Shown here: positions 23,745-47,962 of the stretch, one piece after another
Numbering within the stretch: the stretch's first letter is position 1
Layout of the letters: each line of letters starts with the position of its first letter
NCBI GenBank assembly: GCA_965219955.1
Contig: OZ244799.1
Span: 3,968,001 to 4,032,000 of the forward strand
Origin: a bacterium
GTDB lineage: Bacteria; UBA8248
Direction: 5' to 3'
Length of the DNA stretch: 64,000 nt
Notes under the pieces: model-generated
Database searches by the model: none
Seen by the model: only the letters and a program-made list of their open reading frames with translations
What the model was told of the DNA's origin: nothing
Program-made: the position numbers and the translations under genes

Positions 23745-24152
23745 AGAAAACTTCCGGCCCTCATGGATGCGGCTGGAGGGCGAGTTTCGCCGCAGCATCA
23801 GGCGGCCAGGAGGCGGCGGGCGCGGGCAGGATCATCCGCCGTTCCGGCGGGCTCGAGGCGGAATGCAGCGGCGTCGCTCTCGCTCACGCCGGGGGCCCGG
23901 TGCCTGAGACGCCCCGGCATGGACTGGCGCTGTGCCGGCAGACAAACCGCCTGAAACTTCGCGGCTCGGTGCGAGATAGATCCGTCAACAAATCCCGGGC
24001 GTCCCCGCAGAGCGTATCCGGTCGAGGCGTCATCGCCCCGAAAAAAGTTGTTGAGTCCTCCTGTAGCGCCCTTTATGATGGGCTTGTTCCAGAACGACGT
24101 CATGGCGGCAAGGAGAAGTGTTACGCGAGGAAATCCGAACCTGGAGGAGAAC

Positions 24153-33100: not shown

Positions 33101-34556
33101 GCACCTGCATTTCGATAACCCGAATCCGCATATGGACTGGGACGCGCTTCCGTTGCGGGTGACGTCTGAAGCGACGGCCTGGCCGCTCGTATCCGATCGT
33201 CCGCGCCGGGCGGGCGTGAGCGCTTTTGCGCTTTCGGGTACGAACGCGCACGTCCTGGTGGAGGGGTACGGCGCGCCGGAGGGGGAGTCAGCCGCAGACG
33301 CCGGACCGGGTTCCCCCGCGGGTTTCGCGCAGCCCGTCTCCGTAACGCTGCCGGAGTCGGTCCCGGAATCGCCGTCGGTAGATGGGATGCGTCCGCGCAG
33401 GACGCGGATGCTGCCGCTCTCGGGAAAATCGGACGAAGCGCTTCGTGAGTCGGCGGGGCGGTATCTCTCCTGGCTGGATGAGTGCGCCGGGGAGCTTTCC
33501 TCCGAGGGCGCCGCTGCAGAGCCGCTGCTTTCGGATATGGCCTGGACGGCGGCCGTGGGGCGGAGCCATTTCGCGCACCGCGTGGGTGTCGTATTCGAGG
33601 ACGCCGCGTCGTTGCGGGAAGGATTGAGAGCGATCGAGGAGTCAGACGGGTTGCCGAAGCCGCAGGCGGCGGCGAGGGTGGCCTTCGCGTATGCCGGAGA
33701 GAGCGGACACGGGGTCGGCATGGGCGAGGAACTCTATGAGAGCGAGCCGGTGGCGCGCGCGGTACTGGATAGATGCGACGAGGTGATTCGGGTGGAGCGC
33801 GGCGCCTCGCTGCTGGATGTGATGTTCGGCCGTTCTGGAGATCTGGACGATCCGGCGTGGTCGCAGCCGGCGGTCTTTGCGCTCGAGTGCGCGCTCACAA
33901 CGCTTTGGGCGAGTGTCGGGATTCGGCCGAACGTGGTGTTCGGCGCAGGTTCCGGAGAAGTTGCGGCGGCGCATGCGGCGGGCGTGTTCGCGCTGGAGGA
34001 GGGCTTGCGTTTCGCGGCGCGGCGCGGCGCGCTGATGGAGGCGCTCTCGGGAGACGAGGGAGTGGAGGCGGCCCTGGATGATATCGAAACGGCGCTCGAG
34101 GGCGTTGTGACGGCGTTGCCCTCGCTCACGCTGGTGAATCAGGTGACGGGCCGGGCGCTCGGGGCGGGCGAGACCATGGATGGCGCATATTGGCGACGGC
34201 AGGCGCGTGAACCGGCGGCGTTCGACGGATGCGCCAAGACGCTCGCGGAGTCGGGCGTGGAGGTCGTCGTGGAGATCGGGCCGGATGCGGCGTTCGTCCC
34301 GCAGGTGCTCTCGGCCTGGCCCGATCTTTCAGGCGACGCAGGAGCGAGCGGAAACGGCGCCGCGCCGCCGGTGATGCTTTCGAGCCTGAACCGGGCGTCT
34401 GAGAATGGCGCCGGGTTTGTCGAGGCGGTTGCGCGGGCGTATGAGGCGGGGCTCGCGCTCGACTTCGCCGGGCTGTTCGCCGGAGAGGAGAGGCGGCGGA
34501 TCTCGCTGCCGGGCTACCCGTTCCAACGCCGTCGCTTCTGGTTCGAGGCGCCCTGA
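24153..34556 (+). CDS. supA: Type I PKS/FAS-like synthase, SupA type: KS-AT-DH-cMT-ER-KR-ACP-KS-AT(degenerate)
   Basis: KS1 DTACSSS/HGTGT/NIGH; AT GHSVG and QAFHS; DH DHRVFGRVIAPG; MT EVGAGTG; ER HAGAGGVG; KR GGLGGIG; ACP LGMDSL; KS2 DMTCASS; TTG start after GGAGGA (ORF track starts at 24048). Confidence 0.88.
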   Translation: MKHSDGNFDPSEKTENGAPVTSRPAEPIAIVGMACRFPNAVGIPAFWRLLEAGENAVTEGVPGSGVGRVGVLFPDAGVQSDACRFGAYLDEIDRFDAAFFRISPVEAHLLDPQQRLMLETSWRALEDAGMDPERLRGSRTGVYGGVSNNEYRSLIMDVSDTAEPATSLYTVSGTSFNTAVGRVSFALGLEGPAIALDTACSSSLVAVHQAVAGLQRREADLALAGGVHTILSGRLLELRGNAGMLSPDGRCATFDAAANGYVRGEGCGIVALKRLAEAEADGDRIWGVIRGSAINQDGASPGLTVPSGPAQERVIAAALAQAGIQPHEVDYLEAHGTGTEVGDPIELEAAAAAYGKGRDAGRPLLIGSVKTNIGHLESSAGVAGLIKATLALKQGVVPRHLHFREPTPAVDWERMSLQVAAEATEWPRHPGHPPRAGVSGFGWSGTNAHVIVERYEGPAGDSTVGSMVEPAGSALPVTVSLPEALADPPPAEDGPGARETRLLPLSGKSEGALRELAGRYLSWLDERGEEFASQSAASEPLLSDMAWTAAVGRSHFTHRAGLLFDDAARLRERLNALAEGVDPPEPGTAARVAFLFTGQGSQWVGMGRDLYESEPVARAVLDRCEEVARATRGASLLDVMFAQGGGDLYDTVWAQPAIYALECAVTALWASLGVRPDVVVGHSVGEFGAAHTAGVFGLEDGMRAVMGRSEILASVPEAGTMAAVFAPYSIVEEAVRAYNESAGSERLAIAARNGAHQVLSGQVSAVEAVSQRFEAEEVRVRPIHTSQAFHSPLVEPVLDTLESLFGGFEISAASRTTLVSNVTGRVVEPDEILGGAYWRRHAREAVAFDLGVRTLANLGVDLVVEVGPHAVLGPMLSFAWPGPDDGADAAGVDVEAPRVLASLQRPSQDEGASADELETGFMGAVAGAYEAGVDLSFEGLFAGESRRRISLPGYPFQRERFWVEGPKRRRQSAGHPLLGERHESAGGEITFETEVLPSDPAWLNDHRVFGRVIAPGALYGAMAVSASTAEGSGSMVIEEMQFHNALIFGEENSENGGEGREMQVLLEAPGEEPSRLVRIFSKGEAEEGWTLHAECRAPSEAGGRQAPEQVDLEGLKAALSPEDVPAYYRAKANVGIDLGPSLRTLGSVWSRTGEALGEICFPEALGANGLDVHPLLLDGCFQVMGAARNPGGAEDGITYLPFGWERLWLAERLPDRLLCHVRMRETPSSQETDAETGGSQEVFVGDFRLYDENGALIGELSGFMVKRATRAALLSAVEGLDDLLYEVVWRESALPQGIQPADFLPSPGEVAESWGLFSDYLAAEGVDAGVRPALMADLSRMARHFALAALEKLGWERKAGEAVDSEDLRERLGVREEHGQLFRRMLEILAKSGVLQAEGEGFLVAVGNGEPLPEGIPGEPEQFAAQVIERYAYASNEIGLFRRSAGALAEVLRGEEDPLSLLFGSGEPSAADLYFKAPLWRAANKMLGDATRTLVAGLPEGRRLRVIEVGAGTGSATESVLPELPEGRFDYTYTDISAGFFAQAEGLFGDGGGCIEYRVLDIEKDPLEQGFDSHGYDLVIASNVLHATRYLEETLTHCRSLLAPSGHLVALENLSGQDWLDMTFGQLDGWWRFSDECRPTYALAGPDVWRGSLDAAGFEGVEILGVGGSGSAEMPDRGVILGQQTEEVAERPGVWILAADRGGTAEALASELAARNQTVVLAGEAGSTDGGPPDEIPGVIHTTLEMDSRESWGALLEGLPGDAPLGGVAHFAALDGHGPDATTGEMAEDVKRAGASALALAQGLLDADAAPGKGFWFLTRGAQVLERERGGELAGATLWGFGKAMSREASRMQPKMLDLDPEPTAPPADLANELLYPDAENQIVHRGDRRRVARLVRAGEGVERLALPEEPDWLLGVGEDGALSGLQAEPPPLEPREVRLGIEAAGLNFWDVFAALGLIDEKFLGTEMCGHILEVGSEVSSVSVGDRVVGVKRGTRGMFGPESVTHEELVAPAPAELSATALATMPTVFLSAALSYELAGLKAGDRVLIHAGAGGVGLAAIQLAQAAGAEVFATASAPKQAYLRSLGVEHVFDSRQTKFGEEILEATGGEGVDLILNSLTAEGYIEASLSCLAHGGRFVELAARDILSEEEMAAVRPDVAYYIVKLDAMKEDEPERPGALLKDVMARLAAGELTPLVHTRWPLSEARQAVEYMRDGRHIGKIIFANSPLARGRLREDRTYLVTGGLGGIGCAVADWLAERGAGTIVLNGRRPPDPEVEEAIESLRRRGFTVRVELADVTDPDAVDEMLARMDADLPPLGGVIHSVGVLSDGALGNQSWERFEGVLWPKVLGAWHLHRATLDRDLDMFVLFSSVAGVLGNPGQSNHAAANAFLDQLAAHRRALGLPGQSIAWGAWSEIGEAEEQRERISKNIAVTGVGWMTPQQGLRAFDRLVREDAANSMVLARDWSVFEKTLDNIPPFFEDLLIHAQDAEADSPSLADDLIARLAETPAAEREALLVSFLQQELQAVLRLPGAPEPTVGFFDLGMDSLMAVELRNRLNRAFTDAYTAPNTVVFDYPDIAVLARHLAGELGDLGEVAPASAPQEQPEPERRPKAPREGEQIAVVGMACRFPGAPDISAFWRLLEAGGDAVTDGRRDSGPWSGVAGDPAAEKDFYRQGGFIEGIDQFDASFFGIRPIEARLMDPRQRLLLETSWGALEDAGIDPAPLKGTRTGAYVGLGVSEYRDLVVAGGLADSHIGNAPSVAIGRIAFVLGLMGPAVPLDMTCASSLVAVHQAAAALREGEVDLALAGGVHAVLSPPVSKFMAEFGMLSPSGRCRTFDADADGYVRGEGCGMVVMKRLSDAETDGDRIWGLVQGSAVNQNGASAALTVPNGTAQEQVLEDALSRSGFSPSEVDYLEVHATGSQLGDPIEVRASAAVYGRGRAPDRPLLLGTVKTNIGHLESAAGIAGLIKVLLAMKHGMIPKHLHFDNPNPHMDWDALPLRVTSEATAWPLVSDRPRRAGVSAFALSGTNAHVLVEGYGAPEGESAADAGPGSPAGFAQPVSVTLPESVPESPSVDGMRPRRTRMLPLSGKSDEALRESAGRYLSWLDECAGELSSEGAAAEPLLSDMAWTAAVGRSHFAHRVGVVFEDAASLREGLRAIEESDGLPKPQAAARVAFAYAGESGHGVGMGEELYESEPVARAVLDRCDEVIRVERGASLLDVMFGRSGDLDDPAWSQPAVFALECALTTLWASVGIRPNVVFGAGSGEVAAAHAAGVFALEEGLRFAARRGALMEALSGDEGVEAALDDIETALEGVVTALPSLTLVNQVTGRALGAGETMDGAYWRRQAREPAAFDGCAKTLAESGVEVVVEIGPDAAFVPQVLSAWPDLSGDAGASGNGAAPPVMLSSLNRASENGAGFVEAVARAYEAGLALDFAGLFAGEERRRISLPGYPFQRRRFWFEAP

Positions 34557-34866: not shown

Positions 34867-35050
34867 AGCCGACGTAGTTGAGCGCGGACCCCGAATCAGA
34901 AAGTTGCAATAACTTTCAGACAGGAACACTGATTTTCAGGAAATGAAACAACAAGTTTCGTTTTGGAGCCGGGGCCAGTCCTGCAGGACTGGCCTCTGGT
35001 TTCAAGGCGCACAGGCGGCGACTCCCACACTCGCGGAAAGACTGGTTTCT

Positions 35051-35791
35051 ATGGCTGCTGAGGTTGTCGATTCCTGGTTTCACACGTTCCGTGAAATAGA
35101 CGATATTCTCGTCATACATGTCGACCTGACGCCCGATGAAGATCGCGAGGCGCACGCGATTTCATGGCTCGATGAGAAAGAGCGGGCGCGCCGGCGTCGT
35201 TACCGGTATGACCGTCCCCGGCGCGAGTTCACCCTGTGCCGCGCCGCGCTGCGCGCCATTCTCTGCCGTCGGCTCGGTTGCGGGAACGAGCGACTCGCGT
35301 TCGGCGCTTCCGAGCATGGAAAGCCGTTCGCGTTGGTAGACGGGGTAGCAGCTCCCGTCAGCTTCAACGTCTCTCACAGCGGCAAGCATGGGTTGATCGC
35401 CTTTTCGGCGCAAGGGCGGCTCGGCGTGGACGTGGAAGAACGCGCCGACCGCCTCGACCTCGACGGGATTAGCGAGTTCGTGTTCGGTCCGGACGAACAG
35501 GCCGACTTCGCTGCGACGCGTGGACGGGAAAAGTTTCACTTGTTCTTCACGCTCTGGACGCTCAAGGAGGCGCTGATCAAGGCTCTGGGCACGGGGTTTT
35601 CCCTGGACCCTGCCCGGTTCGAGATTCCATCGTCCATGCGGCATGGTGCGAGAGAGGATACATTCAGGTTCCCCCACATGCCGAATGTCGGATGGAGACT
35701 CGAAAATCTGGGCAACGCGGATTTCGCCGCCGCCATCGCCTATGAACCGGACCAGGCGCTCATGCGAGGAGAGAGCGAGGCGGCTCGATGA
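35051..35791 (+). CDS. Sfp-type 4'-phosphopantetheinyl transferase
   Basis: HGKP, FNVSHSG, LGVDVE, WTLKEALIKALG motifs; start placed at MAAEVV (ORF track 34943). Confidence 0.92.
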   Translation: MAAEVVDSWFHTFREIDDILVIHVDLTPDEDREAHAISWLDEKERARRRRYRYDRPRREFTLCRAALRAILCRRLGCGNERLAFGASEHGKPFALVDGVAAPVSFNVSHSGKHGLIAFSAQGRLGVDVEERADRLDLDGISEFVFGPDEQADFAATRGREKFHLFFTLWTLKEALIKALGTGFSLDPARFEIPSSMRHGAREDTFRFPHMPNVGWRLENLGNADFAAAIAYEPDQALMRGESEAAR

Positions 35792-35931
35792 CGATCTCGG
35801 AAAAAGCCCGGGCGATACCCTGACCGCTCGCCGCCCATGAAGTTCGGGTGGACGACGGCGGTTTGAAGGGTTGTTGAAAAAGTCCCGTGAAGCGATTTTG
35901 GGAATTCAGGCAACTGATGAGAGAGAAGAAT

Positions 35932-36124
35932 CACTCCCCCCTTGAGGGGGTTGTTGAAAAACCTGATGAAGGAGGAATCGCGGTTGTAGGGACAACCCTC
36001 CGTGGTTGTCCTTTCCGGGATGGTTGCCATCAGGACAGGCACGGAGGCCTGTCCCTACGGGTCATCACGCCGCCGACCGTACGCATAGTGGGCTTTTTCA
36101 ACAGCCCCCTCAAGGGGGGGAGCG
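35932..36124. mobile_element. MITE-like palindromic element enclosing a GTAG-type REP doublet
   Basis: Near-perfect ~30-bp inverted ends CACTCCCCCCTTGAGGGGGTTGTTGAAAAA / TTTTTCAACAGCCCCCTCAAGGGGGGGAGCG; internal GTAGGGACAACC...GGTTGTCC and GGACAGGC...GCCTGTCCCTAC. Confidence 0.7.
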
Positions 36125-36346: not shown

Positions 36347-38077
36347 ATGAGTTCGAACGATTCGGGGCTTCGCTACCAGGCCGACGAAAAGCCACCGGTA
36401 AAAGTCGCTTTGGTCCTCGGCCTGCAACTCACCGCTATCAGCGTATCCGCCACGATTTTGCTCACGACGGTCGTGATGCGGGCCGCCGGCCAGAGCGAAG
36501 CCTATCTGGCATGGGCCGTGTTCGCCGCCGTCCTGATCGGAGGCGGGGCCACGATGCTGCAGGCGTTCCGGCTCGGGCGTTTCGGCATGGGGCACGTGCT
36601 CATGATGGGCAGCTCGGGGGCCTTCATCGCGGTATCCATCGAGGCGCTCACCGAGGGAGGGCCCGCTACCTTCGCCACCCTGGTCGTCGTCGCAGCGCTT
36701 TTTCAGTTCGTCATATCCGACAGGCTCGCGCTGTTCCGGCGGGTCCTGACCCCGTCCGTATCGGGAACGGTGCTCATGCTGATCCCGGTCTCGGTGATGG
36801 CGCCCGTCCTCAATCTGCTCAAGGACGTGCCGGAGGGCAGCCCGGCCCCGGGCGCTCCGCTGAGCGCTCTGGCGACAGTGCTCGTCATCTGCGGCCTCAC
36901 CCTCAAGGCGAGCGGGTCGCTTCGCCTCTGGGCGCCTGTCATCGGCGTCCTCGCAGGCTCGCTCGTCGCCGTCTTCTTCGGCATTTACGATACGGCCCGC
37001 GTCGCGGAGGCCGCCTGGGCCGGGCTGCCCCCGGTCGAATGGCAGGGCCTCGATCTCGGCTTCGGGCCGGCTTTCTGGTCGCTTCTTCCCGGGTTCCTGC
37101 TGGCGGCCACCATCGGCGCCATCCGGACGATCAGCAGCGCCGCCGCCGCCCAGCGCGTCTCCTGGCGTCGGCCCCGGGCGGTGGATTTCCGGGCGGTGCA
37201 GGGCGCGGTGGCCACTGACGGTCTGAGCAACCTGCTCTCCGGCCTCGCGGGAACGATGCCGAACACGTCCTATACGACGGGCGCATCCCTGGCCCAGCTC
37301 ACCGGGGTCGCGGCCCGCCACGTCGGGATCGCCGCAGGCGCGATGTTCGCGGCGCTGGCGTTTTTTCCGAAGGCGCTCGCCCTGGTGCTGGCGATACCGG
37401 GGCCGGTCTTCGCCGCCTATCTCATCGTGATGATGGCGATCCTCTTCATGATCGGCGTGCAGATGATCGTTCAGGACGGGATCGACTACCGCAAGAGCCT
37501 GATCGTCGGCGTCTCGTTCTGGCTCGGCGTGGCTTTCCAGAGCGGGGTCGTCTTCCCGGAGTTTTTCTCGAAATTCGCGGGCGGCCTCATGAACAACGGG
37601 ATGACGGCCGGGGGCCTCGTCGCCATCATCATGACCCTGTTCGTGGAGATGACCGAACCCCGCCCCGCCCGGACGGAAGCGGCGCTCGACGCCTCGTCCC
37701 TGCCGGAGCTCAGGGGGTTTCTCGGCGCGTTCGCCTCCGCGTGCAACTGGGATGAGGCGATGGCGAAGCGTCTGGGTGGCGTCTGCGAGGAGATTCTGCT
37801 GACGCTGCATGGACGAGACGAGGGCAGGGAGCAAAGCGGACGGCGTCTGGTTCTGCTCGCGAAAAAAGACAGCAGCGCAGCGGTTCTCGAGTTCATCGCG
37901 GCGGCGGGCGAGGGAGAGAACCTGGAGGATCGAGTCACCCTGCTCGGCGAGCAGACCGAAGAAGCCCACCTCGAGCAGGAAGTGTCGCTCAGGCTCTTGC
38001 GCCATCACGCGGCTTCGGTTCGCCACCAGCAATACCACGGCGCGGACATCGTGACCGTCCGCGTGGAAGCCCCATAG
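36347..38077 (+). CDS. NCS2 (xanthine/uracil)-family permease with C-terminal soluble domain (sup-cluster permease)
   Basis: LRYQADEKPP, ATMLQ, MGSSGAFI, DGLSNLLSGLAG, PNTSY motifs; C-terminal ~130 aa soluble domain. Confidence 0.85.
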   Translation: MSSNDSGLRYQADEKPPVKVALVLGLQLTAISVSATILLTTVVMRAAGQSEAYLAWAVFAAVLIGGGATMLQAFRLGRFGMGHVLMMGSSGAFIAVSIEALTEGGPATFATLVVVAALFQFVISDRLALFRRVLTPSVSGTVLMLIPVSVMAPVLNLLKDVPEGSPAPGAPLSALATVLVICGLTLKASGSLRLWAPVIGVLAGSLVAVFFGIYDTARVAEAAWAGLPPVEWQGLDLGFGPAFWSLLPGFLLAATIGAIRTISSAAAAQRVSWRRPRAVDFRAVQGAVATDGLSNLLSGLAGTMPNTSYTTGASLAQLTGVAARHVGIAAGAMFAALAFFPKALALVLAIPGPVFAAYLIVMMAILFMIGVQMIVQDGIDYRKSLIVGVSFWLGVAFQSGVVFPEFFSKFAGGLMNNGMTAGGLVAIIMTLFVEMTEPRPARTEAALDASSLPELRGFLGAFASACNWDEAMAKRLGGVCEEILLTLHGRDEGREQSGRRLVLLAKKDSSAAVLEFIAAAGEGENLEDRVTLLGEQTEEAHLEQEVSLRLLRHHAASVRHQQYHGADIVTVRVEAP

Positions 38078-38274
38078 CCGCTTGTTCGCGCACAGGCGAG
38101 AAGAATCATATACATGGCTCGAAGCGGGATTCCGGGCTTTGGATTCGACGGGGAACGACGTATCACTCCCCCAGGGGAAGTTGAAAAAGTTTGTTTCACG
38201 AGCGGGCGGACCCATGTGTCCGCCCATCCCCTAGAAGGGACCGCCACCTACAGAACCCCCCAACCCCCCTTGTC

Positions 38275-38487
38275 GGGGTTGTTGAAAAAGCCCTCCTCTC
38301 TCAGAAATGACGAACAAAACCACACCGCCTCATCCTGAGTAGCGGCGAAGCCGCGTATCGAAGGATGCCCTCTCGCCACGGCGCGAGTTCCTCGCCCTTC
38401 GATACGCCGCCTTCGGCGGCTACTCAGGGTGAGGAAAGAAGCGTCGGCGGTTTTCAGGGGACGCCTATGGGCTTTTTCAACAACCCC
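38275..38487. mobile_element. 213-bp MITE with perfect 19-bp TIRs and 5-bp target duplication
   Basis: TIR GGGGTTGTTGAAAAAGCCC at both ends; TTGTC at 38270-38274 and 38488-38492. Confidence 0.85.
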
Positions 38488-38750
38488 TTGTCAGGGGGGC
38501 TTTTTGGGCAAACCCCTCAAGGGGAGAGCGGGAAACCGCCCGGAAGTTCATCGTCGGTGTGACCGACTGCGCTGCGGCGCTCATTCGGGACGGTCGGCGG
38601 CCCGCCATGCCGGGATCATCGATGCGGGCCTTCGGGGCCGGAGGCTTGTCAGGATGCGGGTGCTTCACTTATAATCTCGATATGGATTACGCGAAACGCA
38701 CCCGCTTCAGAATCTCACGCTAGCTACCACCGGAAAAGGAGTGAACACTC

Positions 38751-39019: not shown

Positions 39020-39919
39020 ATGACGAAAGGGGCGCATTGGGCGATACCCGAGCCCGTTTCGACATGCGAGGTCCGACTCGACGAACGCACTGTGACCACG
39101 GTGCGGCGACACGGCAATCCGGCAGGTCCCCGGCTCGTCCTGACCCACGGCAACGGTCTCGCGGTCGATCCCTATTATCCGTTCTGGTCGCTGCTCGCCG
39201 ACGATTTCGACCTGATGGTCTACGACCTCAGGAACCACGGCTGGAACAGCGTCGGCGCGCAGCGGGATCACAACATCCCGGCAATGATTTCCGACCATGA
39301 CCTCATTCTCGACGCCATCGTCGAGGAATACGGCGAAAAACCGACCGTGGGCGTGTTTCACTCCCTTTCGACGCTTGTGGCGCTCCTCTCCTTCACCGAC
39401 GCCTATTCCGCGCTCATCCTGTTCGATCCGCCGCTATGCAAACCCGCCAGGAGAGAGGAGGAATGGATCGCGGCGACGGAACGGATGGCGGCGATGATCC
39501 GGAAGCGGGCGGATCGGTTCGAGAGCCTGGAGCAGTTAACCGAAATCTTCGCCATCGTTCCCGGATACGCCCGCATCCTGCCGGGGGTGCGCGATCTCAT
39601 AGCGCAGTCGACCCTTCGCAAGAGCGCCGACGGGGACGCTTACGAACTCCGCTGCCCGCGCGATTACGAGGCCCAGATCGCGGAATATATGAGGAGCTTC
39701 TCGCCTTTGCTGGATCTGACGACACTGACCTGCCCGACGAAGGTCATCGGAGCCGACCCCACGCTGCCCTACGCGTACCTGCCGACTTTCGACCTGAGCC
39801 ACGCAGCGGCCGTCGACTACGACTTCGTGCCCGAGGCTTCGCACTTCCTGCAGGTGGAAAAGCCGGAGGAGTGCGCCGCGATGGTCCGGGAATACCTGGC
39901 AAGCCACGGAATTCGCTAG
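39020..39919 (+). CDS. Alpha/beta hydrolase (sup-cluster hydrolase, possible thioesterase)
   Basis: HGNG oxyanion region, DLRNHG, FHSLS nucleophile elbow, ASHFL catalytic His. Confidence 0.85.
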   Translation: MTKGAHWAIPEPVSTCEVRLDERTVTTVRRHGNPAGPRLVLTHGNGLAVDPYYPFWSLLADDFDLMVYDLRNHGWNSVGAQRDHNIPAMISDHDLILDAIVEEYGEKPTVGVFHSLSTLVALLSFTDAYSALILFDPPLCKPARREEEWIAATERMAAMIRKRADRFESLEQLTEIFAIVPGYARILPGVRDLIAQSTLRKSADGDAYELRCPRDYEAQIAEYMRSFSPLLDLTTLTCPTKVIGADPTLPYAYLPTFDLSHAAAVDYDFVPEASHFLQVEKPEECAAMVREYLASHGIR

Positions 39920-39933
39920 GCCGCGCGCGAAGG

Positions 39934-40395
39934 ACTGTTGAAAAAGCCCCCCTTTTCAGGGGATAGAGGGGACGCCGCCGTAGGGACAGGTCGCGACCTG
40001 TCCCTACAAGAAGCGGTGTGGTTTTGTTCGTCATTCCGGCGAAAGCCGGAATCCATTTTGACTTTTCACCGAGCAGGGCGGCCAAGACCTTGTTGTTGCC
40101 CGGCGTCCGGATGCGGAATGCAGAGAATCCGCCTTTCGTTTTTGTATTCGATTCCGGTCCTCCCCACCGGAGTGTAAAAATGTCCAAGCGAGGAGGTAAA
40201 AAGGCAAAGGCGGAAATGGATTCCGGCTTTCGCCGGAATGACGGGTGTTGTGATCTCTCCGGAAGGGTGTCGTAGGGGCGCTTCGTGAAGCGCCCGTTTC
40301 TCCGGCAAGGGCCGTTCGCGAACGTGGGCGGTTCGCGAACCGCCCCTACGGACCCCCTATCCCTCCTTGTCAGGGTGGGTGCTTTTCAAGTCAAG
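39934..40395. repeat. Composite cluster of REP-like palindromes between convergent genes
   Basis: GTAGGGACAGGTCGCGACCTGTCCCTAC (39980-40007); CGTCATTCCGGCGAAAGCCGGAATCCA (40029-40055) and its exact inverse (40217-40243); GTAGGGGCGCTTCGTGAAGCGCCC; GGGCGGTTCGCGAACCGCCCCTAC. Confidence 0.85.
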
Positions 40396-40414
40396 GGAGC
40401 GGTCAACAACCTCG

Positions 40415-41590
40415 TCAGGGGCTGTCTGCGGTTGTGGCGTCCCGCGCGGCCATCCTCTTGCTGACTATCTCCTGAAACACCATCAAGAGCCCTTCCTCGA
40501 GACCCAGCATGTGGGTTTCGTTCACTCCGTCCAGCAGGTTGGCCTGAACCCGTTCCGCCATCATGTAATCTTCGTCGTCCAACGTGACCTCCGCGTAGAG
40601 GAAGCGGTTGCGCAACGCTTTCTGCCCCGACTCCCCGACGTATTTATCGGGAAGATAGAGCAGTTCCTGCGAGCAGAGCGTTCGATCCGGGGCCAGCGGC
40701 AAGAACCTGCTGATTAAAATGGTGTCATCGCGCACGATGAAAATCGTGTTGGGGAACAGAACATAAAAAAGCGTTACGAAGTCGATAAGCTTTCTCTGTT
40801 TCTCCGGGACGTTTTCCGCCTCCGGCAAGTTCGTTTGTGCGGCCATAACGCGCAGATGAGGCCCCTCCACGTCGTGAGAAAGAAAACCTTCGCGGAAATT
40901 CGGAGCCAGGGTTCCTTTGTGAAGATGCGCAACGTGGTAGCCTTCCAGGTTCATTTGAACAAGAAGTTTCCAGTTGGCCTTTTTCTCCGTCACGACCCTT
41001 TTGTAGCTGACAAAACGCTCAAGTTGGAACTCCGCGAAATCTTCCGCGAAAGCGCCCAGATCCTGCGCCGGATCGAACGACTCATGTCCAGTTGGGTGAA
41101 CCCATATCAATCCCGTGCTCTCCGCCACCGAACACGCTTTCAGGCCGTAGTCGCGCTTGTCGATGCAAGGAAAGGAGGATGACCGCGGAATACCCCGTAG
41201 CGCGCCGTCCAGGCCATACGTCCACCCGTGAAACGGACAAACCAGCGCCCGCAGCGGTTCGTCTTTCTCCCTGAGAAGAAGCGGTGAGCCCCGATGACGG
41301 CAGGTGTTCAGAAATGCCCGGAGTACGCCGTCTTCGCCCCGGACGACGAAATACGGCCGGCGCGTCCAGTCGCCGAGCATGTAACTGCCAGGCTCACGAA
41401 CGCTGTCCATGTGCCCGGCCACGAGCGGGCTGCCAGAAAACAGCGTCTCGAGCTCGCGCTCGAAGATCTCCTGGCTGGTATAGGCGTCCAGGGGCAGACG
41501 CAAGGCCGTGTCGTAAATCTGTTGGTCTTCGGGTCGCCCGCGGAGTTCAAGCATTCTGTCGAGCAACGCCATCTGACGATCGTGTTTCAT
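40415..41590 (-). CDS. Rieske non-heme iron oxygenase alpha subunit
   Basis: CRHRG...CPFHGW Rieske motif, EGYHVAHLH mononuclear Fe motif, C-terminal EDY. Confidence 0.92.
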   Translation of the reverse strand: MKHDRQMALLDRMLELRGRPEDQQIYDTALRLPLDAYTSQEIFERELETLFSGSPLVAGHMDSVREPGSYMLGDWTRRPYFVVRGEDGVLRAFLNTCRHRGSPLLLREKDEPLRALVCPFHGWTYGLDGALRGIPRSSSFPCIDKRDYGLKACSVAESTGLIWVHPTGHESFDPAQDLGAFAEDFAEFQLERFVSYKRVVTEKKANWKLLVQMNLEGYHVAHLHKGTLAPNFREGFLSHDVEGPHLRVMAAQTNLPEAENVPEKQRKLIDFVTLFYVLFPNTIFIVRDDTILISRFLPLAPDRTLCSQELLYLPDKYVGESGQKALRNRFLYAEVTLDDEDYMMAERVQANLLDGVNETHMLGLEEGLLMVFQEIVSKRMAARDATTADSP

Positions 41591-42597
41591 CGTTCCACGC
41601 GCTCCTTTGGTTCAGGTCGAAAGTCCCGTTCGCGCCGGATCGTACGACGCTCGCGGTTATCGAAAAAGGCGCATTCCGCGAGAACGTCGCCGTCCTTTGC
41701 TCCGGCTTCCGCGATCTCCATGTGGAAACGGGTAATCGGTTTATACGGGAAGAACCCCTTCCCGTACTGTTCCGCTGGGTATTCGAGGTTTTTCGCCCGC
41801 TCCAGATCGTAGTGCGACCCGACATCCACAAAGCGCATCGCGTAGGCGGCGCGCTTGGGGAGCGCGCCCTCACCGAGCATGATGCTGCGGTGGACGACCA
41901 TTTTGTTGAACAGGAGCGCGTCGCCGGGCGCAAAATCGTCTTCGATCTGGTGGTTCTCCAGTATCTCGCACATGGTCGGCGAATTCAGGATTCCTTCGCG
42001 CATGGCGAAGTACTCATTTACGTTCGTCCTGACCCCGGCGCGCTCCTTGGCCTCCAGCGTCGAGACGACCGCCGGCTCGATCTGGCGGAAGACGAAATCG
42101 CCCGATATGACGTTCTGGGGGACATAAGCCATTCCGCCCCGCTGGCCCTTCGTATCCACGGGATGCAGCGGCGCCCAAATGGTGCACGCGAATTCCTCAG
42201 CGGGCTGAAAGCCGAAGCTCTGCACGCCGACGTGCCAGGGGAGCCCCTTGCTGACGTTCTTTTCGATTTCAAAGCACAACTCGGCAGTCAGGAAGAGATC
42301 GCATTCGGCCAGATCCGTCAGAGCCCGCCGGAAATAAGGCCGTTCCATCAGTTCATAGACTTGCCCTTTATCGGTCTCGAAGTCATACGTCGTTCGTATG
42401 TCGAGAAGTTCCGCTGAACGAGATTTGTTGAAATCGGTGGCCCCCTCCCCACTCAATTCGACTTCGACACGATTCAGAAGCGTCTCGACCACGTTATCGT
42501 TCAGGAACCCTTCCAGTTTGACGAAGCCGTCGCGCCGGAATTGCTCCTTCTGCTCCGGGGTGATGAAGAACTCGTTGTCGAAAGGATGGCTGCTCAT
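41587..42597 (-). CDS. PhyH-fold Fe(II)/2-oxoglutarate enzyme with HxG motif (putative halogenase), copy 2
   Basis: EQFRRDGFVKL, PWHVGVQ, TIWAPL, GGMAYVP, PGDALLF...HRS, RAAYAMRF; GGAGG RBS before ATG 42597. Confidence 0.78.
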   Translation of the reverse strand: MSSHPFDNEFFITPEQKEQFRRDGFVKLEGFLNDNVVETLLNRVEVELSGEGATDFNKSRSAELLDIRTTYDFETDKGQVYELMERPYFRRALTDLAECDLFLTAELCFEIEKNVSKGLPWHVGVQSFGFQPAEEFACTIWAPLHPVDTKGQRGGMAYVPQNVISGDFVFRQIEPAVVSTLEAKERAGVRTNVNEYFAMREGILNSPTMCEILENHQIEDDFAPGDALLFNKMVVHRSIMLGEGALPKRAAYAMRFVDVGSHYDLERAKNLEYPAEQYGKGFFPYKPITRFHMEIAEAGAKDGDVLAECAFFDNRERRTIRRERDFRPEPKERVER

Positions 42598-42629
42598 CGT
42601 ATCCTCCTGCGCGTTTCCGCCGGCGATAT

Positions 42630-43607
42630 TCAACCGGCCTGGAGAGAGCGTTCGCGCCGGATGGTACGACGCTCGCGGTCGTCGAAAAAGGCGCATTCCG
42701 CGAGAAGGTCGCCGTCGCTCGCTCCGGCTTCTGCGATCTCGATGTGCTGACGGGTGAAAGGTTTATACGGAAAGAACCCCTTCCCGTACATTTCCACGGG
42801 GAATTCGAGCATCCGCGCCCGCTCCAGATCGTAGTGCGAGCCCGCATCGATGAAGCGCATCACGTAGGCGGCCCGCCTGGGAAGCGCCCCCTCACCGAGC
42901 ATGATGCTCCGGTGGACGACCATTTTGTTGAACAGGAGCGCGTCGCCGGGCTCGAAATCGTCTTCGACCTGGTGGTTCTCGAGTATCTCGCACATGGTCG
43001 GTGAATTGAGGATCCCCGAGCGCATGGAGAAGTATTCGTTTACGTTCGTCCTGTCCCCGGCCCGCTCCCTGGCCTGCAGCGTCGAGACGACCGCCGGCTC
43101 GATCTGGTGGAAGATGAAATCGCCCGATATGACGCGATCGGGGACATAAGCCATCCCGCCCCGCTGCCCCTTCGTATCCACGGGGTGCAGCGGCCCCCAT
43201 AGCGTGCACCCGAATTCTTCCGCGATCTGAAAACCGAAGCTCTGTGCGCCGACATGCCAGGGAAATCCCTTGCTGACGTTCTTTTCGACTTCAAAGCACT
43301 GCTCGAAGGTCAAAAAGAGGTCGCATTCGACCAGATCCGTAAGGGCCCTTCGCAAGTAAGGCCGTTCCAGCAGTTCATAGACAGCGGTCATTTCGCCCGC
43401 GAAGTCATATTTCGCTCGATTGAACATTGCATCGGCCTTGAAACTGTCGGCCTCCCCCCGGTCCATTTCGGCTTCGACACGATTCAGCAGCGCCTCGACC
43501 ACTTCAGAGTTGTAGAACCCTTCCAGTTTGACGAAGCCGTCGCGCCGGAATCGCTCCTTGTGCTCGGGGGTGACGTGGAACTCGTTGTCGAAAGGATGGC
43601 TGCTCAT
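42630..43607 (-). CDS. PhyH-fold Fe(II)/2-oxoglutarate enzyme with HxG motif (putative halogenase), copy 1
   Basis: ERFRRDGFVKL, PWHVGAQ, TLWGPL, GGMAYVP, PGDALLF...HRS, RRAAYVMRF; close paralogue of the downstream gene. Confidence 0.78.
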   Translation of the reverse strand: MSSHPFDNEFHVTPEHKERFRRDGFVKLEGFYNSEVVEALLNRVEAEMDRGEADSFKADAMFNRAKYDFAGEMTAVYELLERPYLRRALTDLVECDLFLTFEQCFEVEKNVSKGFPWHVGAQSFGFQIAEEFGCTLWGPLHPVDTKGQRGGMAYVPDRVISGDFIFHQIEPAVVSTLQARERAGDRTNVNEYFSMRSGILNSPTMCEILENHQVEDDFEPGDALLFNKMVVHRSIMLGEGALPRRAAYVMRFIDAGSHYDLERARMLEFPVEMYGKGFFPYKPFTRQHIEIAEAGASDGDLLAECAFFDDRERRTIRRERSLQAG

Positions 43608-43780
43608 GGCTTGCTCCTCCCATGACTGTCTGTTCACATACATCCGGCTGCCTGGAAAAGTAAGTTAGCATAGCGTGGCGAACGAGGGTAGTTTTTTTTC
43701 AGAGGGAAGGATCCGTGGCGCTTTGGCGGAATGACGGCGGTGGTCAATTCCGACCCGTGAGGACTTCTTCAACAACCCCG

Positions 43781-45922
43781 CTAAGCGAGGGTCCCGTTTC
43801 GTTTCGTTTTGCCTGTTTTCTTGCGCGTCATGACCAGCCGGCCGAGCGGGTCCACCTCCACGCGGAACGAAGGCGGTATGAGTACCGTGGAATCGGGCTG
43901 CTCGATGACCGCGGGTCCCGGAACCCGGTTTCCGCCTTTGAGGCGTTCGCGTTCATAGATGGGACAGTCGATGAAACTACCGGCTTCGCGAAAATGCACC
44001 TTCCGCTCGCCCTTGAGCGCCGCTTTTGGGCTTCGTGAGCCTGCGGCGATTTCTTTCGGGCGAATCCGGTCCGTGAGGCCGATGGCCGAGACGCGGAGGC
44101 TGACGGCCTGGACGCTTTCCGCCTCATCGGAGTAGCTGTACTGGCGCAGGTGCGCGTCGTGAAACGCCCTTCGCGCCTTGCCGAGCCATCTGGCGTTCAC
44201 CTTGCCGCCGGGCAGCGGCACGTTGATCTCGTAGTTCTGAAGCGGGTAGCGCAGGTCGGCCGAGCGCGCGAGCATACGCCTCAATCGGGGCGCCTTCTCG
44301 GCCTTGAGCCATTCGTCCGCCGCAGCTTCCAGCTCGGCCATGAGAGCGGCGATGGAGCCTGCGTTATCCCCGGCGAGGCTCAGGCGGGTGGTGGCCGTGA
44401 AGTCCGCTCTCATGTCCGCCCAAAGCAGGCCGAGGGCTGAGAAAACGCCCGGCGCCTCGGGGATGACGATGCGCGGAATCCCGAGTTCGTCCGCCAGGTC
44501 CGCCGCGTGCAGGGGGCCCGCGCCGCCGAAACCGATGAGCGCGAAATCACGCGGGTCATAGCCCCTGGCGACCGAGACCACGCGCAGGGTGCGGACCATG
44601 TGCGCGTTGACGACTTCAATGACGCCTGCGGCGGCTTCCATGGTGGACAGACCGAGCGGCCCGGCTATCTTCTCCTCGATGGCTTTTTCCGCAAATTCGA
44701 GGTTGAGGCGAGATTCTCCCCCGACGAAATAATCGGGGTTCAGGCGGCCCAGGACGAGGTTGGCGTCCGTGACGGTGGGTTCCTCGCCCCCGCGCCCGTA
44801 GCAGACCGGGCCGGGTTCGGAACCCGCGCTGCGGGGGCCGACTTTCAGAACGCCCACGCCGTCCACCGAAGCGATGGAGCCGCCGCCCGCGCCGCATTCG
44901 GTGAGATCGATGACGGGCGTCTTGACGGGGTACCCCGTGAAGCGCACCGCCAGGGACTGGTGCATGCCCATCCCGATCTCGTATTCGGTGGTGGTCTTGT
45001 AGGCGCCGCCCTCGATGAGGCTCGCCTTGGCCGTGGTGCCGCCCATGTCGAAGGAGATGACGTCGGGCTCTCCGAGCTCTTGAGCGAGAACGGCGGCGGC
45101 GATGACGCCTGCCGCGGGGCCTGATTCGATGAGCGTGTGGGGGCGTTCTCGCGCAGAAGCCGGCGACATCAGCCCGCCGGCGGAGTTCATGATGAGGAGC
45201 TTCTCGGGGCGGTGGCCGAGCCGGGAAACCTCATCGTGCAGCCTTTCCGTATAGCGCGCGAATATGGGCTTCAGGTAGCCGACGAGTGAGGCCGTGCTGG
45301 TTCGTTCGAACTCGCGGAATTCGGGCGTGATGTCGGAAGAAGCGACGATGTGGCGGCCCGGAAGCGCGCGAACGAGATGTTCTTTCACCCGGTGCTCGTG
45401 GGCGGGATTCAGGTAGGAGAAGAGCAGCGCGATCACCACAGATTCGGCGCCCGAGACGTCTAGCGCGTCCGCGAGCCGGTCGAGTTCTTTTTTCGTCAGC
45501 TTTGTGACGACGTCTCCGTTCCACGCCAGCCGCTCGTTCACCTCGAAACAGAGCCGCCGGGGGATGAGGGGCCTGGCCTTCACTTCCTGCAAGTTATACA
45601 GGCTCGGCCTGCGCTGGCGGGCGATCTCGAGGATGTCCCGGAACCCCCGGGTGGCGACCAGGGCGGTGCGCGCGCCTTTTGACTCCAAAACGGTGTTGGT
45701 GGCCACGGTGGTGGCGTGGAGGATGCGCCCCACCTCTCCGGGCGATATGCCTTGCGTCGCCCTCAGGAGTCCGTTTACGAAACAGCCCTCCAGGTTCACC
45801 GGCGTGGTGTCCACCTTATAGGAGGCGATGAGTCCCTCCTGCTCTCCCATGAGGACGACGTCGGTGAACGTGCCGCCGATGTCCACGCCGACGCGGTATT
45901 TCGCTTTCTTCTCAGGAGCCAT
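43781..45922 (-). CDS. Hydantoinase/5-oxoprolinase subunit A
   Basis: GVDIGGTFTD, HATTVATN, SGPAAG, DMGGTT, GAGGGSIA, FGGAGPLH. Confidence 0.93.
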   Translation of the reverse strand: MAPEKKAKYRVGVDIGGTFTDVVLMGEQEGLIASYKVDTTPVNLEGCFVNGLLRATQGISPGEVGRILHATTVATNTVLESKGARTALVATRGFRDILEIARQRRPSLYNLQEVKARPLIPRRLCFEVNERLAWNGDVVTKLTKKELDRLADALDVSGAESVVIALLFSYLNPAHEHRVKEHLVRALPGRHIVASSDITPEFREFERTSTASLVGYLKPIFARYTERLHDEVSRLGHRPEKLLIMNSAGGLMSPASARERPHTLIESGPAAGVIAAAVLAQELGEPDVISFDMGGTTAKASLIEGGAYKTTTEYEIGMGMHQSLAVRFTGYPVKTPVIDLTECGAGGGSIASVDGVGVLKVGPRSAGSEPGPVCYGRGGEEPTVTDANLVLGRLNPDYFVGGESRLNLEFAEKAIEEKIAGPLGLSTMEAAAGVIEVVNAHMVRTLRVVSVARGYDPRDFALIGFGGAGPLHAADLADELGIPRIVIPEAPGVFSALGLLWADMRADFTATTRLSLAGDNAGSIAALMAELEAAADEWLKAEKAPRLRRMLARSADLRYPLQNYEINVPLPGGKVNARWLGKARRAFHDAHLRQYSYSDEAESVQAVSLRVSAIGLTDRIRPKEIAAGSRSPKAALKGERKVHFREAGSFIDCPIYERERLKGGNRVPGPAVIEQPDSTVLIPPSFRVEVDPLGRLVMTRKKTGKTKRNGTLA

Positions 45923-47708
45923 GCTGGAGGGCCTCCCTGCGTTTCAGCGCTTCATCGACAAGGGCGTTCGGATAGGACGCCCTGGCGTATTCGAGCGAAA
46001 TCTTTCCGTCCGCGAGATCGGCCGCCAACTCTTCCGGAGGGTGTTCGGCCGGGTCGCCGTACCCGCCGGCCCCGGCCGACTGGCACCTGAGCACATCACC
46101 CTCCCGCATCTCGTGGGGGCCGCCCTTGCTCGGCAGCTTCGTTTCATTCGGCTCCCCGGGATTTTTCAGGTGAATCCCCCTCGCGCCTTCCTTGCCCCCG
46201 AAAAGGGGCCAGGGGGAGAAATCGTGCCGGTCGGCGTGGGCGATGAAGCCCGTGTCGCTGAGCATCAGAAAGTCTTTTCTCGTGGCGAGTCCGCCCCGGC
46301 GGCGTCCCGCGCCGCCGCTGTCGGGCACGAGCTCGAAGCGCTCCACGCGGATGGGGTATTCACTCTCGAGGATCTCGACGGGCAGGTTCGGTATGTTGTT
46401 CGTGTGAATCTGGACGGCGTCCATTCCGTTGCTCGTCTCGCGGCCGCCCATGCCGCCGCCGATGCCGTCGATGCAGATGAACGGCCTTCGCCGGATGGCG
46501 TCGAAGCCGTGGATGTTGATGGAGGTGGTGCCGTGGCCGCAGGCGCATACGCGCTCCGGCGCGACCTTCGACATGACGCCGATGAGCAGATCGGCCAGCC
46601 GCTGGCAGGTGGTGCCGCGTCCGCCCACGGGCGCGGGCGGGCTGGGGTTCACGACGCTCTCCTCGGGCGCTACGAGCCTCACCACGCGCTCGAACGCCGC
46701 GTTCGACCACAGTTCGGGGTCGATGGTCGCCTTGAGCGCGTAGGCGACAGTGGCGAACAGCGCTTCATAGACGACGTTCACGCCGCCCGTTCTCTGCCGG
46801 CTCGAACCCGTGAAGTCGAAAACCATGTGAGGCTCAGGATTATGCGAGATGGTGAGCGTCACCTTGAGCGGTACCGGGCCGGGCACGTGGGCGTCGTCGT
46901 CGAGCTGGTCCTCGAAATCCCACGTCCCCTCGGGCAGTTCCTTTATCTTCGCGCGGATCGTTCGTTCGTTGTAGTCGAGCACGCCTTCCACGAGTTCGAG
47001 AAAACGCCCGGCGCCGTATTTTTCGCTCAGTTCCTGAAGGCGCCGGACGCCCAGCTGGTTGCACGCGGCCTGCGCGCGGAGGTCGGCCGGTCTGTCTTCC
47101 GAGAAGCGCATGTTCAGGAGGATGAAGGAGAAGAGGTCTTCCTGCAGTACGCCCTCCTTGAAAATTTTCATGGGTGGTATGCGCAGGCCCTCCTGGTATA
47201 TCTCGTTGCAGCCCTCGGTCATCGCGGCGCCCGGCTTGATGCCGCCCACGTCCGGCCAGTGGCCCATGTTGGCGACGAAGCCGATGAGGCGCTTGCCGTC
47301 GAACACCGGCGAGGCCACCGTGACGTCGGCGAGGTGGGTTCCGCCGCCGTGGTAGGCGTCGTTCGCCAGGAAGGCGTCGCCGGGCCTGAGTTCTTCCAGC
47401 GGGTAGCGCTTCAGGATGTTGCGGATGATGCTCAGCATCGCGCCCAGGTGCATGGGGATGTGCTCGGCCTGTGCGATGAGGCGGCCTTCGGCGTCGAAGA
47501 TGGCCGTCGAGGCGTCCTGGCGCTCCTTGATGTTCGTGGAGTAGGCCGTGCGGATGAGCGCCGCGCCCATCTCCTCGGCCACCGAGAGGAGGGCGTTCGA
47601 GAAGACCTCGAGCGCGACCGGATCGGGGGTCGCCGATGCGCGCCGCTTCGTGGTCTTCCGGCGCGAGGCCGCTTTTTTCGAACCCGCTTTCGTGCGTCCG
47701 GCCGGCAT
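45912..47708 (-). CDS. Hydantoinase/5-oxoprolinase subunit B
   Basis: RTAYSTNIKE, HIPMHLG, NDAYHGGGTHLAD, HWPDVGG, DSGGAGRRRGG, GAGGYGDP; start placed at MPAGRTK. Confidence 0.92.
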   Translation of the reverse strand: MPAGRTKAGSKKAASRRKTTKRRASATPDPVALEVFSNALLSVAEEMGAALIRTAYSTNIKERQDASTAIFDAEGRLIAQAEHIPMHLGAMLSIIRNILKRYPLEELRPGDAFLANDAYHGGGTHLADVTVASPVFDGKRLIGFVANMGHWPDVGGIKPGAAMTEGCNEIYQEGLRIPPMKIFKEGVLQEDLFSFILLNMRFSEDRPADLRAQAACNQLGVRRLQELSEKYGAGRFLELVEGVLDYNERTIRAKIKELPEGTWDFEDQLDDDAHVPGPVPLKVTLTISHNPEPHMVFDFTGSSRQRTGGVNVVYEALFATVAYALKATIDPELWSNAAFERVVRLVAPEESVVNPSPPAPVGGRGTTCQRLADLLIGVMSKVAPERVCACGHGTTSINIHGFDAIRRRPFICIDGIGGGMGGRETSNGMDAVQIHTNNIPNLPVEILESEYPIRVERFELVPDSGGAGRRRGGLATRKDFLMLSDTGFIAHADRHDFSPWPLFGGKEGARGIHLKNPGEPNETKLPSKGGPHEMREGDVLRCQSAGAGGYGDPAEHPPEELAADLADGKISLEYARASYPNALVDEALKRREALQHGS

Positions 47709-47962
47709 GAAGATATTTCTCCTTCGCCTGGGCGGATGAGGCAACGGGAAGCCGTGCCCCTCATCCGGGGAAATCGTTTTTCCGCTCTTCGTTCAAGGCG
47801 GGGCGTTTCGGGAATGCGCGGCCGCCGCCGGGTGGCTGTAGAGGCGAACGCGCTGTTCACCGGACGCCCGGGTTTTTCGCTGCAACTTCACGGGAAAACC
47901 ACGCGCGCATTCCGCTTCCCGGGCGCAGCGCCAAGGTGGAGCGGATGTGTCGAGCCGCAGGT

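Follow-up and report, generated by a model that had tools for sequence, protein, structure and literature searches.

A tandem gene pair in a sponge-associated bacterium

The stretch of DNA analyzed here, hereafter the window, spans 64,000 nucleotides (positions 3,968,001 to 4,032,000 of contig OZ244799.1, assembly GCA_965219955.1) of a bacterium of the lineage UBA8248, whose genome consists of one contig of 4.28 Mb. Its minus strand carries a tandem pair of genes, halA (positions 41587–42597, 336 amino acids) and halB (42630–43607, 325 amino acids), the only two copies in the genome. As detailed below, sequence comparison makes it highly likely that both encode Fe(II)/2-oxoglutarate (2OG)-dependent radical halogenases of the BtnX family. 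Each open reading frame starts with an ATG (at 42597 in halA and 43607 in halB), placed by an AGGAGG-type ribosome-binding site (AGGAGG or GGGAGGAG) 6–8 nt 5′ of it and by an alignment of homologues, in which both proteins open with the conserved N-terminus MSSHPFDNEF. The two proteins are 77% identical (242/314). On the minus strand, the genes for hydantoinase B and hydantoinase A come first, followed after 173 nt by halB, after a further 32 nt by halA, and then by a Rieske oxygenase gene.

The initial annotation had described both products as PhyH-like proteins in which Gly replaces the acid of the iron-binding His-x-Asp motif, at positions 42226–42234 and 43248–43256. Codon counting from the start codons bore this out to the codon: the former are the minus-strand codons of His122-Val-Gly124 in halA and the latter those of His118-Val-Gly120 in halB. 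The other motifs on which that description drew (FRRDGFV, W.PL, GGMAYVP, PGDALLFNKMVVHRS, and a later Arg) were also found in both translations. With Gly in place of the acid, neither protein has the canonical PhyH facial triad (His-x-Asp/Glu...His), and the Pfam PhyH profile (PF05721) matches them weakly, at 28.7 (halA) and 34.5 (halB) bits against a cut-off of 22 and over profile positions 1–148 of 213 only. Homologues are publicly named “phytanoyl-CoA dioxygenase family protein” or “hypothetical protein”, which is the kind of label that had been foreseen. Among the 120 closest listed homologues, 112 have His-x-Gly at this position, five His-Val-Asp, one His-Val-Glu, and one His-Val-Cys; the remaining one gave no match, and BtnX itself is not among the 120. 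Since the motif is kept in 112 of these proteins and comparison of related genomes shows purifying selection on both genes (dN/dS of 0.10–0.24 for halA and 0.15–0.29 for halB), His-Val-Gly is not a chance feature of this locus. In a wider alignment of 80 sequences, the Gly position is occupied by Gly in 60, Asp in 15, Glu in three, Ser in one, and Ala in one, and a mixture of halogenases and hydroxylases in the family is also described in the BtnX paper (PMC13489965).

Relationship to BtnX and predicted active site

BtnX (Dshi_3684; PDB 9PV1 and 9Q04) is encoded on the killer plasmid of Dinoroseobacter shibae (Kipouros & Chang, Nature 2026, PMC13489965). As described there, both in vitro data and crystals show that it chlorinates C2 of biotin, chloride is bound at its 2His-1Gly iron site (1.2 Å resolution), and the enzyme can also transfer bromide and azide. 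The same source reports that BtnX is highly promiscuous for propionate-headed substrates, fatty acids included, that its open channel accepts free acids, and that it favors biotin over octanoate more than tenfold, with a Km for biotin below 2 µM. Gln119, Ser120, and Arg248 hold the substrate carboxylate, Tyr64 belongs to the same network, and exchange of Gly117 for an acid (G117D or G117E) suppresses halogenation and turns the enzyme into a hydroxylase (PMC13489965).

In a sequence search of the Protein Data Bank (PDB), BtnX (9PV1) was matched over the full length by both halB (E = 2.1e-139, residues 1–318) and halA (E = 5.3e-134, residues 1–321), and the second-best match was the halogenase domain of CurA (CurA Hal; E = 1.6e-26). 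Residue equivalences to BtnX take the chain index of the alignment as the UniProt number plus 2. On this basis, all seven BtnX residues of the 2His-1Gly site and the carboxylate network are retained in the aligned proteins. The iron site comprises His115 (His118 in halB, His122 in halA), Gly117 (Gly120, Gly124), and the distal ligand His229, which corresponds to His232 in halB (minus-strand codon 42912–42914), invariant in 80/80 aligned relatives, and to His236 in halA (41890–41892, minus strand). The network comprises Tyr64 (Tyr67 in halB, Tyr71 in halA), Gln119 (Gln122, Gln126), Ser120 (Ser123, Ser127), and Arg248 (Arg251, Arg255). The full-length match to BtnX, together with the conserved iron site and substrate-carboxylate residues, supports the earlier proposal that halA and halB are aliphatic C–H halogenases. 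This is a small superfamily: a search of 1.84 billion representatives with halB recovered 169 clusters (50% identity level) at E up to 1e-3.

That proposal would be refuted by an Asp or Glu that takes over the role of the missing ligand, and none was found at the sequence level, where no acid specific to the clade lies close to the ligands. The residue four positions before the distal His, where a relocated acid would lie, is Lys in 19/19 close relatives and Lys or Arg in 80/80 wider relatives. The only invariant acid near the distal His is Asp222, ten residues before it. As it is equally invariant in family members with His-x-Asp/Glu, it does not appear to be a compensating ligand. For halB, the 80-sequence alignment gave a confident AlphaFold2 model (pLDDT 94.2, pTM 0.92); it replaced a model from only 19 close homologues, which had reached a pLDDT of 45.8. 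In a Foldseek search of a PDB library ending 2026-04-08, which does not contain 9PV1, the best fold match of this model was CurA Hal (E = 1.7e-20, TM 0.78/0.83).

Comparison with characterized halogenases

The similarity of halA and halB to BtnX extends to a collinear full-length alignment, the PWHVG motif, the carboxylate network, the context of the distal His (NK.VVHRS), and the format of a stand-alone protein of about 310–336 residues. The two genes differ from btnX in their setting: they are chromosomal, belong to a sponge-associated uncultured lineage, and form a diverged tandem pair in one operon with a Rieske oxygenase gene. Furthermore, their products contain three extra insertions in loops on either side of the active site, and the genes lack a neighboring biotin transporter of the energy-coupling factor (ECF) type, with BioY not detected in the genome; instead, they are linked to a polyketide synthase (PKS), a 4′-phosphopantetheinyl transferase (PPTase), a hydrolase, and a permease.

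CurA Hal chlorinates the carbon beside the free carboxylate of 3-hydroxy-3-methylglutaryl bound to an acyl carrier protein (ACP). This domain of the curacin A PKS (PDB 3NNF and 3NNL) resembles halA and halB in fold, as noted above, in its His-Val-Gly motif, and in its association with polyketides, and its alignment shows equivalents of the Tyr, Ser, and Arg of the carboxylate network. It differs in its low identity (about 22%), in having Gly in place of the Gln119 equivalent, and in acting as an in-line domain on an ACP-bound substrate. halA and halB are separate genes 7 kb from the PKS, and the Pfam analysis found no Hal domain inside that PKS.

In SyrB2, WelO5, and BesD, the replacement of the carboxylate ligand by Ala or Gly opens a halide site, and the same chemical logic would apply to halA and halB. 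These enzymes are not close relatives and none is among the PDB sequence matches of the pair; the SyrB2-type model TIGR01762 gives 17.7 bits for halB, against a cut-off of 226.3, and no match for halA. By sequence, the nearest solved relatives of halA and halB are BtnX and CurA Hal rather than SyrB2, WelO5, or BesD. AspX, the L-aspartate 3-halogenase of Vibrio campbellii, is set beside halA and halB by its description only: it belongs to the same superfamily, the alpha-carboxylic acid radical halogenases (cluster X), and acts on a free substrate, but is assigned to another subfamily with a narrow, buried pocket (PMC13489965). Finally, oxygenases of the HygX/EvdO2 type share a PhyH-like fold and the missing His-x-Asp acid, but the fold similarity is weak, and in halA and halB the residue four positions ahead of the distal His is not an acid.

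The kind of enzyme encoded by halA and halB is already in print, with the publication of BtnX in July 2026, which lowers the novelty of the enzyme itself. The main text of that paper contains neither the word “polyketide” nor the word “sponge”, and some cluster X members are described there as lying near ACP-related genes (PMC13489965). What is new is a PKS-coupled, indel-marked, and duplicated branch of these halogenases in a sponge-associated lineage.

Phylogeny and clade-specific insertions

A scan with one genome per species yielded 55 related loci, whose neighboring genes were identified by tblastn (loci are designated by L numbers and genomes by G numbers). In a quick IQ-TREE phylogeny of 58 rows, with branch support given by SH-aLRT only, a single set of 47–48 rows (SH-aLRT 87–88) takes in each of the 31 PKS-linked rows, and the ECF-linked rows are basal. 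The latter come from loci L020, L023, L048, L049, and partly L046, at which BioY or genes for the ECF ATPase or T component lie beside the halogenase homologue. Their hosts are cultured or free-living bacteria (Oceaniradius, Alexandriicola, two Amycolatopsis, and partly a metagenome-assembled genome (MAG) of Hyphomicrobiales). L023 also carries plasmid genes, and L024 (Nioella) has the same layout of open reading frames. No ECF genes were found beside any scanned locus of the PKS clade. Likewise, Pfam searches detected no ECF biotin-transporter genes (BioY, BioM, BioN) in the 64-kb window, and BioY (PF02632) was not found in the one-contig genome, which is 94% complete.

Independently of the tree, the members of the PKS-linked set have in common three insertions that are missing from the ECF-linked rows and the outgroup. 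The first adds three residues (seven in halA) to the loop before the Tyr, the second adds five residues (KGFFP) after Tyr-Gly, and the third adds three residues (AEA). halB and halA thus do not share the loop lengths of BtnX and the ECF-linked homologues, which they exceed by these amounts. Insertions 1 and 2 coincide with loops 50–57 and 275–276 of BtnX, which are described as mobile and as adjoining the 2OG site (PMC13489965).

A set of 12 rows (SH-aLRT 92) contains halA and halB as sister groups, which points to a recent, lineage-specific duplication. The two clades are separated by 43 fixed differences, and halA is the more derived of the two, its loop ahead of the Tyr64 equivalent being four residues longer. 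Changes derived in halA cluster in this lid loop just before the Tyr; examples, besides the 4-residue insertion, are Asp for Phe and Thr for Lys in F.R.KYDF, a motif that is conserved elsewhere. This clustering makes it plausible, as far as sequence can tell, that the paralogues diverged in substrate recognition.

Several members of the family show further variations of the active site. A Chloroflexota MAG contains another tandem pair (L026:8811–9731 and L026:10001–10951), of which one member has His-Val-Gly and the other His-Val-Asp; judged by these motifs, it would be a natural pair of halogenase and hydroxylase. A well-supported subclade (L038, L039, L040, L042, L043, L045, and L054; SH-aLRT 100), whose halogenase genes lie at about positions 10001–10950 of each locus or at the locus start, has the motif His-Val-Gly-Val-Asp-Ser, with Asp as the Gln119 equivalent. 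Four of the seven are PKS-linked, and the exchange may indicate a different substrate head group. In the PKS-linked loci L014 and L036 (His-Val-Asp) and L035 (His-Val-Glu), an acid is back at the Gly position, as in the BtnX mutants G117D and G117E, which suggests that some symbionts may carry out 2-hydroxylation in place of 2-halogenation.

Linkage to a polyketide synthase

The PKS gene of the window (positions 24048–34556, plus strand) encodes a type I enzyme of 3502 amino acids with the Pfam domain order KS-AT-DH-cMT-ER-KR-ACP-KS-AT, comprising one full reducing and methylating module followed by KS-AT, and is the only PKS of its kind in the genome. This second KS-AT pair (31848–34556) forms its end, where an ACP, a thioesterase, and a reductase are all missing. 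The chain must therefore be released by a separate enzyme, for which the alpha/beta hydrolase encoded at positions 39020–39919 (plus strand; Pfam Abhydrolase_6) is the obvious candidate.

Of the 55 loci, 23 have an orthologue of this PKS no more than 10 kb from the halogenase, with 52–93% identity over long collinear stretches. A 24th match (L022) consists only of an ER-like dehydrogenase and was left out, and loci L003 and L010 end short of the PKS position. The PKS-linked loci carry about eight phylum labels (Nitrospinota-like, Pseudomonadota, Gemmatimonadota, Chloroflexota, Dadabacteria, Binatia, Actinomycetota, and Acidobacteriota), and in six of them (L008, L012, L036, L042, L043, and L045) halogenase and PKS are located within about 0.5 kb on one strand. 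Other recurrent neighbors are the hydrolase (19 of the 55 loci, from many phyla), the PPTase (12), and the permease (9); the remaining scanned MAG loci have no common neighbor. In all five examined clade genomes whose halogenase does not adjoin a PKS, a PKS orthologue with 55–65% identity was found elsewhere, collinear over query residues 57–2648 in four and in several pieces in the fifth (G005). By contrast, none of five ECF-type or free-living genomes contained a collinear orthologue, and only domain-level matches of 33–49% were detected there.

Within the genus of the window, eight of 23 genomes have both halogenase and PKS, three have the PKS only, 11 have neither, and one has the halogenase only. 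For two of the eight, the halogenase evidence is incomplete: G032 yielded a fragment of 89 residues, and in G030 halB is split beside an intact halA. Because related genomes are not independent, this pattern is suggestive and does not amount to a statistical test. In the genome with the halogenase only (L018, corresponding to G031:C1:3313510–3314244), a PKS was not found, and the sole halogenase copy covers residues 1–245 and contains an internal TAG, in keeping with a gene that decayed once the partner pathway had been lost. Other irregular genes were seen among close relatives. In a Nitrospinota-labelled MAG (L010:807–1749), halB is split into two frames (807–1151 and 1162–1749) next to an intact halA, and there are two copies of the Rieske gene (L010:2837–7021; 82–83% identity). 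The PKS orthologues of two genomes of the same genus contain in-frame TGA codons (two in G036:C1:2828450–2836327 and one in G032:C134:8891–16795), which could be sequencing errors, signs of pseudogenes, or recoding.

The PKS at 24048–34556 probably represents the sup PKS known from sponge symbionts. These PKSs are described as small and monomodular, as ubiquitous in high-microbial-abundance sponges, and as distributed over many bacterial phyla, with a product that is only predicted, namely methyl-branched fatty acids (PMC4245539, PMC3908369, PMC9864124, PMC9426513, PMC6151786). The occurrence of the PKS orthologues in about eight phyla agrees with what is reported for SUP-like clusters (PMC9426513). 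Consistent with this habitat, the stretch of the window was found in “sponge metagenome” runs from three studies, in “marine metagenome” runs, and in runs of two coded organisms.

Neighboring genes and RNA-library coverage

The gene downstream of halA (positions 40415–41590, minus strand) encodes the alpha subunit of a Rieske [2Fe-2S] non-heme-iron oxygenase (Pfam Rieske and Ring_hydroxyl_A). Its ATG overlaps the halA stop codon (ATGA), which places it in the transcription unit of halA. The nearest solved relative of the protein is the carnitine monooxygenase CntA (E = 7e-27), and stachydrine enzymes are also near. The gene is kept beside the halogenase at six loci (L003–L006, L010, and L013), with 82–91% identity. 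Contigs about 97% alike to the window from two sponge metatranscriptome runs of one study cover the Rieske gene (40517–41405 and 40707–41466), the halA/halB junction (42342–42678 and 42056–42907), and halB, and provide weak evidence for transcription of the Rieske-halA-halB region. A promoter and terminator scan of positions 39900–43900 gave nothing better than shuffled sequence.

Between the PKS and this operon, the plus strand encodes the PPTase (34943–35791; Pfam ACPS), a transporter of the xanthine/uracil permease family of 576 amino acids (36347–38077; Pfam), and the hydrolase mentioned above. The transporter resembles SupE by description only, as SupE is described as a permease (PMC3908369). 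The spacers at 35856–36120, 38264–38528, and 40010–40243 contain short inverted-repeat elements of the MITE (miniature inverted-repeat transposable element) type, for example with 26-nt arms at 35936–35961 and 36094–36119 and perfect 30-nt arms at 40029–40058 and 40214–40243. In sponge-metagenome DNA, the bins of these elements reach a depth of 500–2700, compared with about 100 for genes, so the element appears to be highly repeated in the sponge community.

Upstream of halB, the minus strand carries hydantoinase/oxoprolinase A and B genes (43781–47744; Pfam). They lie next to a halogenase in only two of the 55 loci (L003 and L006) and are probably not part of the halogenase system. For the same reason, the idea that these enzymes open the ureido ring of biotin was dropped. 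The RNA-library contigs leave the hydantoinase genes nearly uncovered, while DNA runs cover them; this difference was not counted as evidence.

Proposed function and alternative explanations

By homology to the BtnX structure, the two His of halA and halB would hold the iron, and the Gly in place of Asp/Glu would free a coordination site for chloride or bromide. Reaction with 2OG and O2 would then generate a haloferryl species, which is predicted to abstract hydrogen from the carbon next to a free carboxylate held by the equivalents of BtnX Y64, Q119, S120, and R248, and rebound of the halogen would give a 2-halo acid. We infer that the native substrate is not biotin but an acid that the neighboring monomodular, methylating PKS produces and the conserved alpha/beta hydrolase releases. 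halA and halB probably take different chain types or act in succession, and the Rieske oxygenase, co-transcribed with them, probably carries out another oxidation step. That the pair alpha-halogenates a PKS-derived fatty acid is, with the uncertainty about release included, a proposal to which we give even weight for and against. The broader reading is more tentative and, in our view, somewhat more likely to fail than to hold: the sup pathway would owe its missing tailoring steps to halogenases of the BtnX type and to the hydroxylases among their natural variants (His-x-Asp/Glu), the sup products of many phyla would be 2-halo (or 2-hydroxy) methyl-branched fatty acids, and biotin halogenation, as in free-living bacteria, would be an ancestral or side branch of the family.

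Several observations weigh against the proposed coupling to the PKS. We know of no 2-halo methyl-branched fatty acids from sponges, and a narrow, non-exhaustive literature search found no 2-halo fatty acids in sponges. The operons of the halogenases and the PKS run towards each other and stand 7 kb apart, with repeat-filled spacers between the two, and 16–17 members of the clade do not adjoin a PKS. The phylogeny is a quick tree, with the single type of support given above. The RNA-library contigs are no proof of transcription, as they could reflect DNA carry-over, and a single transcript is not demonstrable from contigs. The sup identity of the PKS is unconfirmed, as no SupA or SupE name or reference sequence was matched; among the best 120 of 4324 matches in the permease search, the name SupE was absent. 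Co-occurrence of halogenase and PKS in the same genomes could also reflect a shared habitat, since sup-type PKSs are described as ubiquitous in sponge symbionts (PMC4245539, PMC9426513). Finally, the BtnX residues that bind the substrate carboxylate are fully kept in halA and halB, and the low Km of BtnX (below 2 µM; PMC13489965) together with this conservation retains biotin among the candidate substrates.

If biotin is the substrate, halA and halB would be biotin 2-halogenases like BtnX that serve competition in the sponge microbiome, either by making halobiotin as an antivitamin or by altering scavenged biotin, and the neighboring PKS would be incidental. BtnX is the closest characterized protein, its preference for biotin over octanoate is pronounced (PMC13489965), and the basal family members adjoin BioY or ECF transporter genes. 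However, BioY was not found in the 94% complete genome, the scanned loci of the PKS clade have no ECF genes, two of the three clade insertions fall on mobile loops of BtnX, PKS adjacency recurs in 23 of the 55 loci, and the halogenase is decayed in the one member of the genus in which no PKS was found. We therefore consider this explanation unlikely, albeit one to be taken seriously. A different acid that has nothing to do with the PKS, for example one derived from the host or from seawater, appears quite unlikely as the substrate. In that case, the pair would form a small modification or catabolic module with the Rieske oxygenase, in line with the halB-halA-Rieske operon, the small polar compounds (carnitine and stachydrine) on which the solved relatives of the Rieske protein act, the clade members that do not adjoin a PKS, and the promiscuity of BtnX for propionate-headed substrates (PMC13489965). 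Yet the Rieske partner is confined to one lineage (the six loci named above), whereas the linkage to PKS, hydrolase, and PPTase spans phyla, and presence within the genus follows the PKS.

The remaining alternatives concern the form of the substrate and the chemistry itself. It is very unlikely that the pair halogenates an ACP-tethered intermediate with a free distal carboxylate, as in-line CurA Hal does, instead of a released acid. The second-best sequence match and best fold match to CurA Hal (the latter in a library without 9PV1), the shared Tyr, Ser, and Arg equivalents, and the linkage to a PPTase and an ACP-bearing PKS speak for such a substrate; but the proteins are stand-alone and only about 22% identical to CurA Hal, against E = 2e-139 to BtnX, which acts on free substrates and whose open channel takes free acids (PMC13489965). 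In addition, the PKS architecture predicts a monocarboxylic chain, the sole carboxyl of which is the thioester. Barely credible, in our assessment, is that halA and halB are ordinary oxygenases with a relocated iron-binding acid of the HygX type. An EvdO2-type structure does appear in the fold list, although far down (rank 47, E = 2.3e-10). The PDB sequence search returned no HygX match at E up to 10, and we largely reject this reading because of the Lys or Arg at the relevant position in 80/80 relatives, the presence of Asp222 also in His-x-Asp/Glu members, which makes it not clade-specific, the BtnX crystal structure with chloride on a 2His-1Gly iron, and the suppression of BtnX halogenation by G117D/E (PMC13489965).

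Implications for the family and for sponge symbionts

Radical halogenases are rare, as the 169 clusters matched here among 1.84 billion representatives illustrate, and are sought as catalysts of C–H functionalization. To our knowledge, BtnX is the only promiscuous radical halogenase known. Most of its close relatives recovered here (47–48 of the 58 tree rows) belong to one clade of MAGs of uncultured bacteria, in which they are genetically coupled to a PKS with a product known by prediction only. If this coupling is functional, the sup pathway would gain a testable chemical prediction, and a new class of halogenated lipids would be predicted in sponges. The clade would also offer a natural panel of variants for engineering, with two diverged paralogues, switches between Gly, Asp, and Glu at the iron site, and a clade in which the Gln119 equivalent has changed to Asp.

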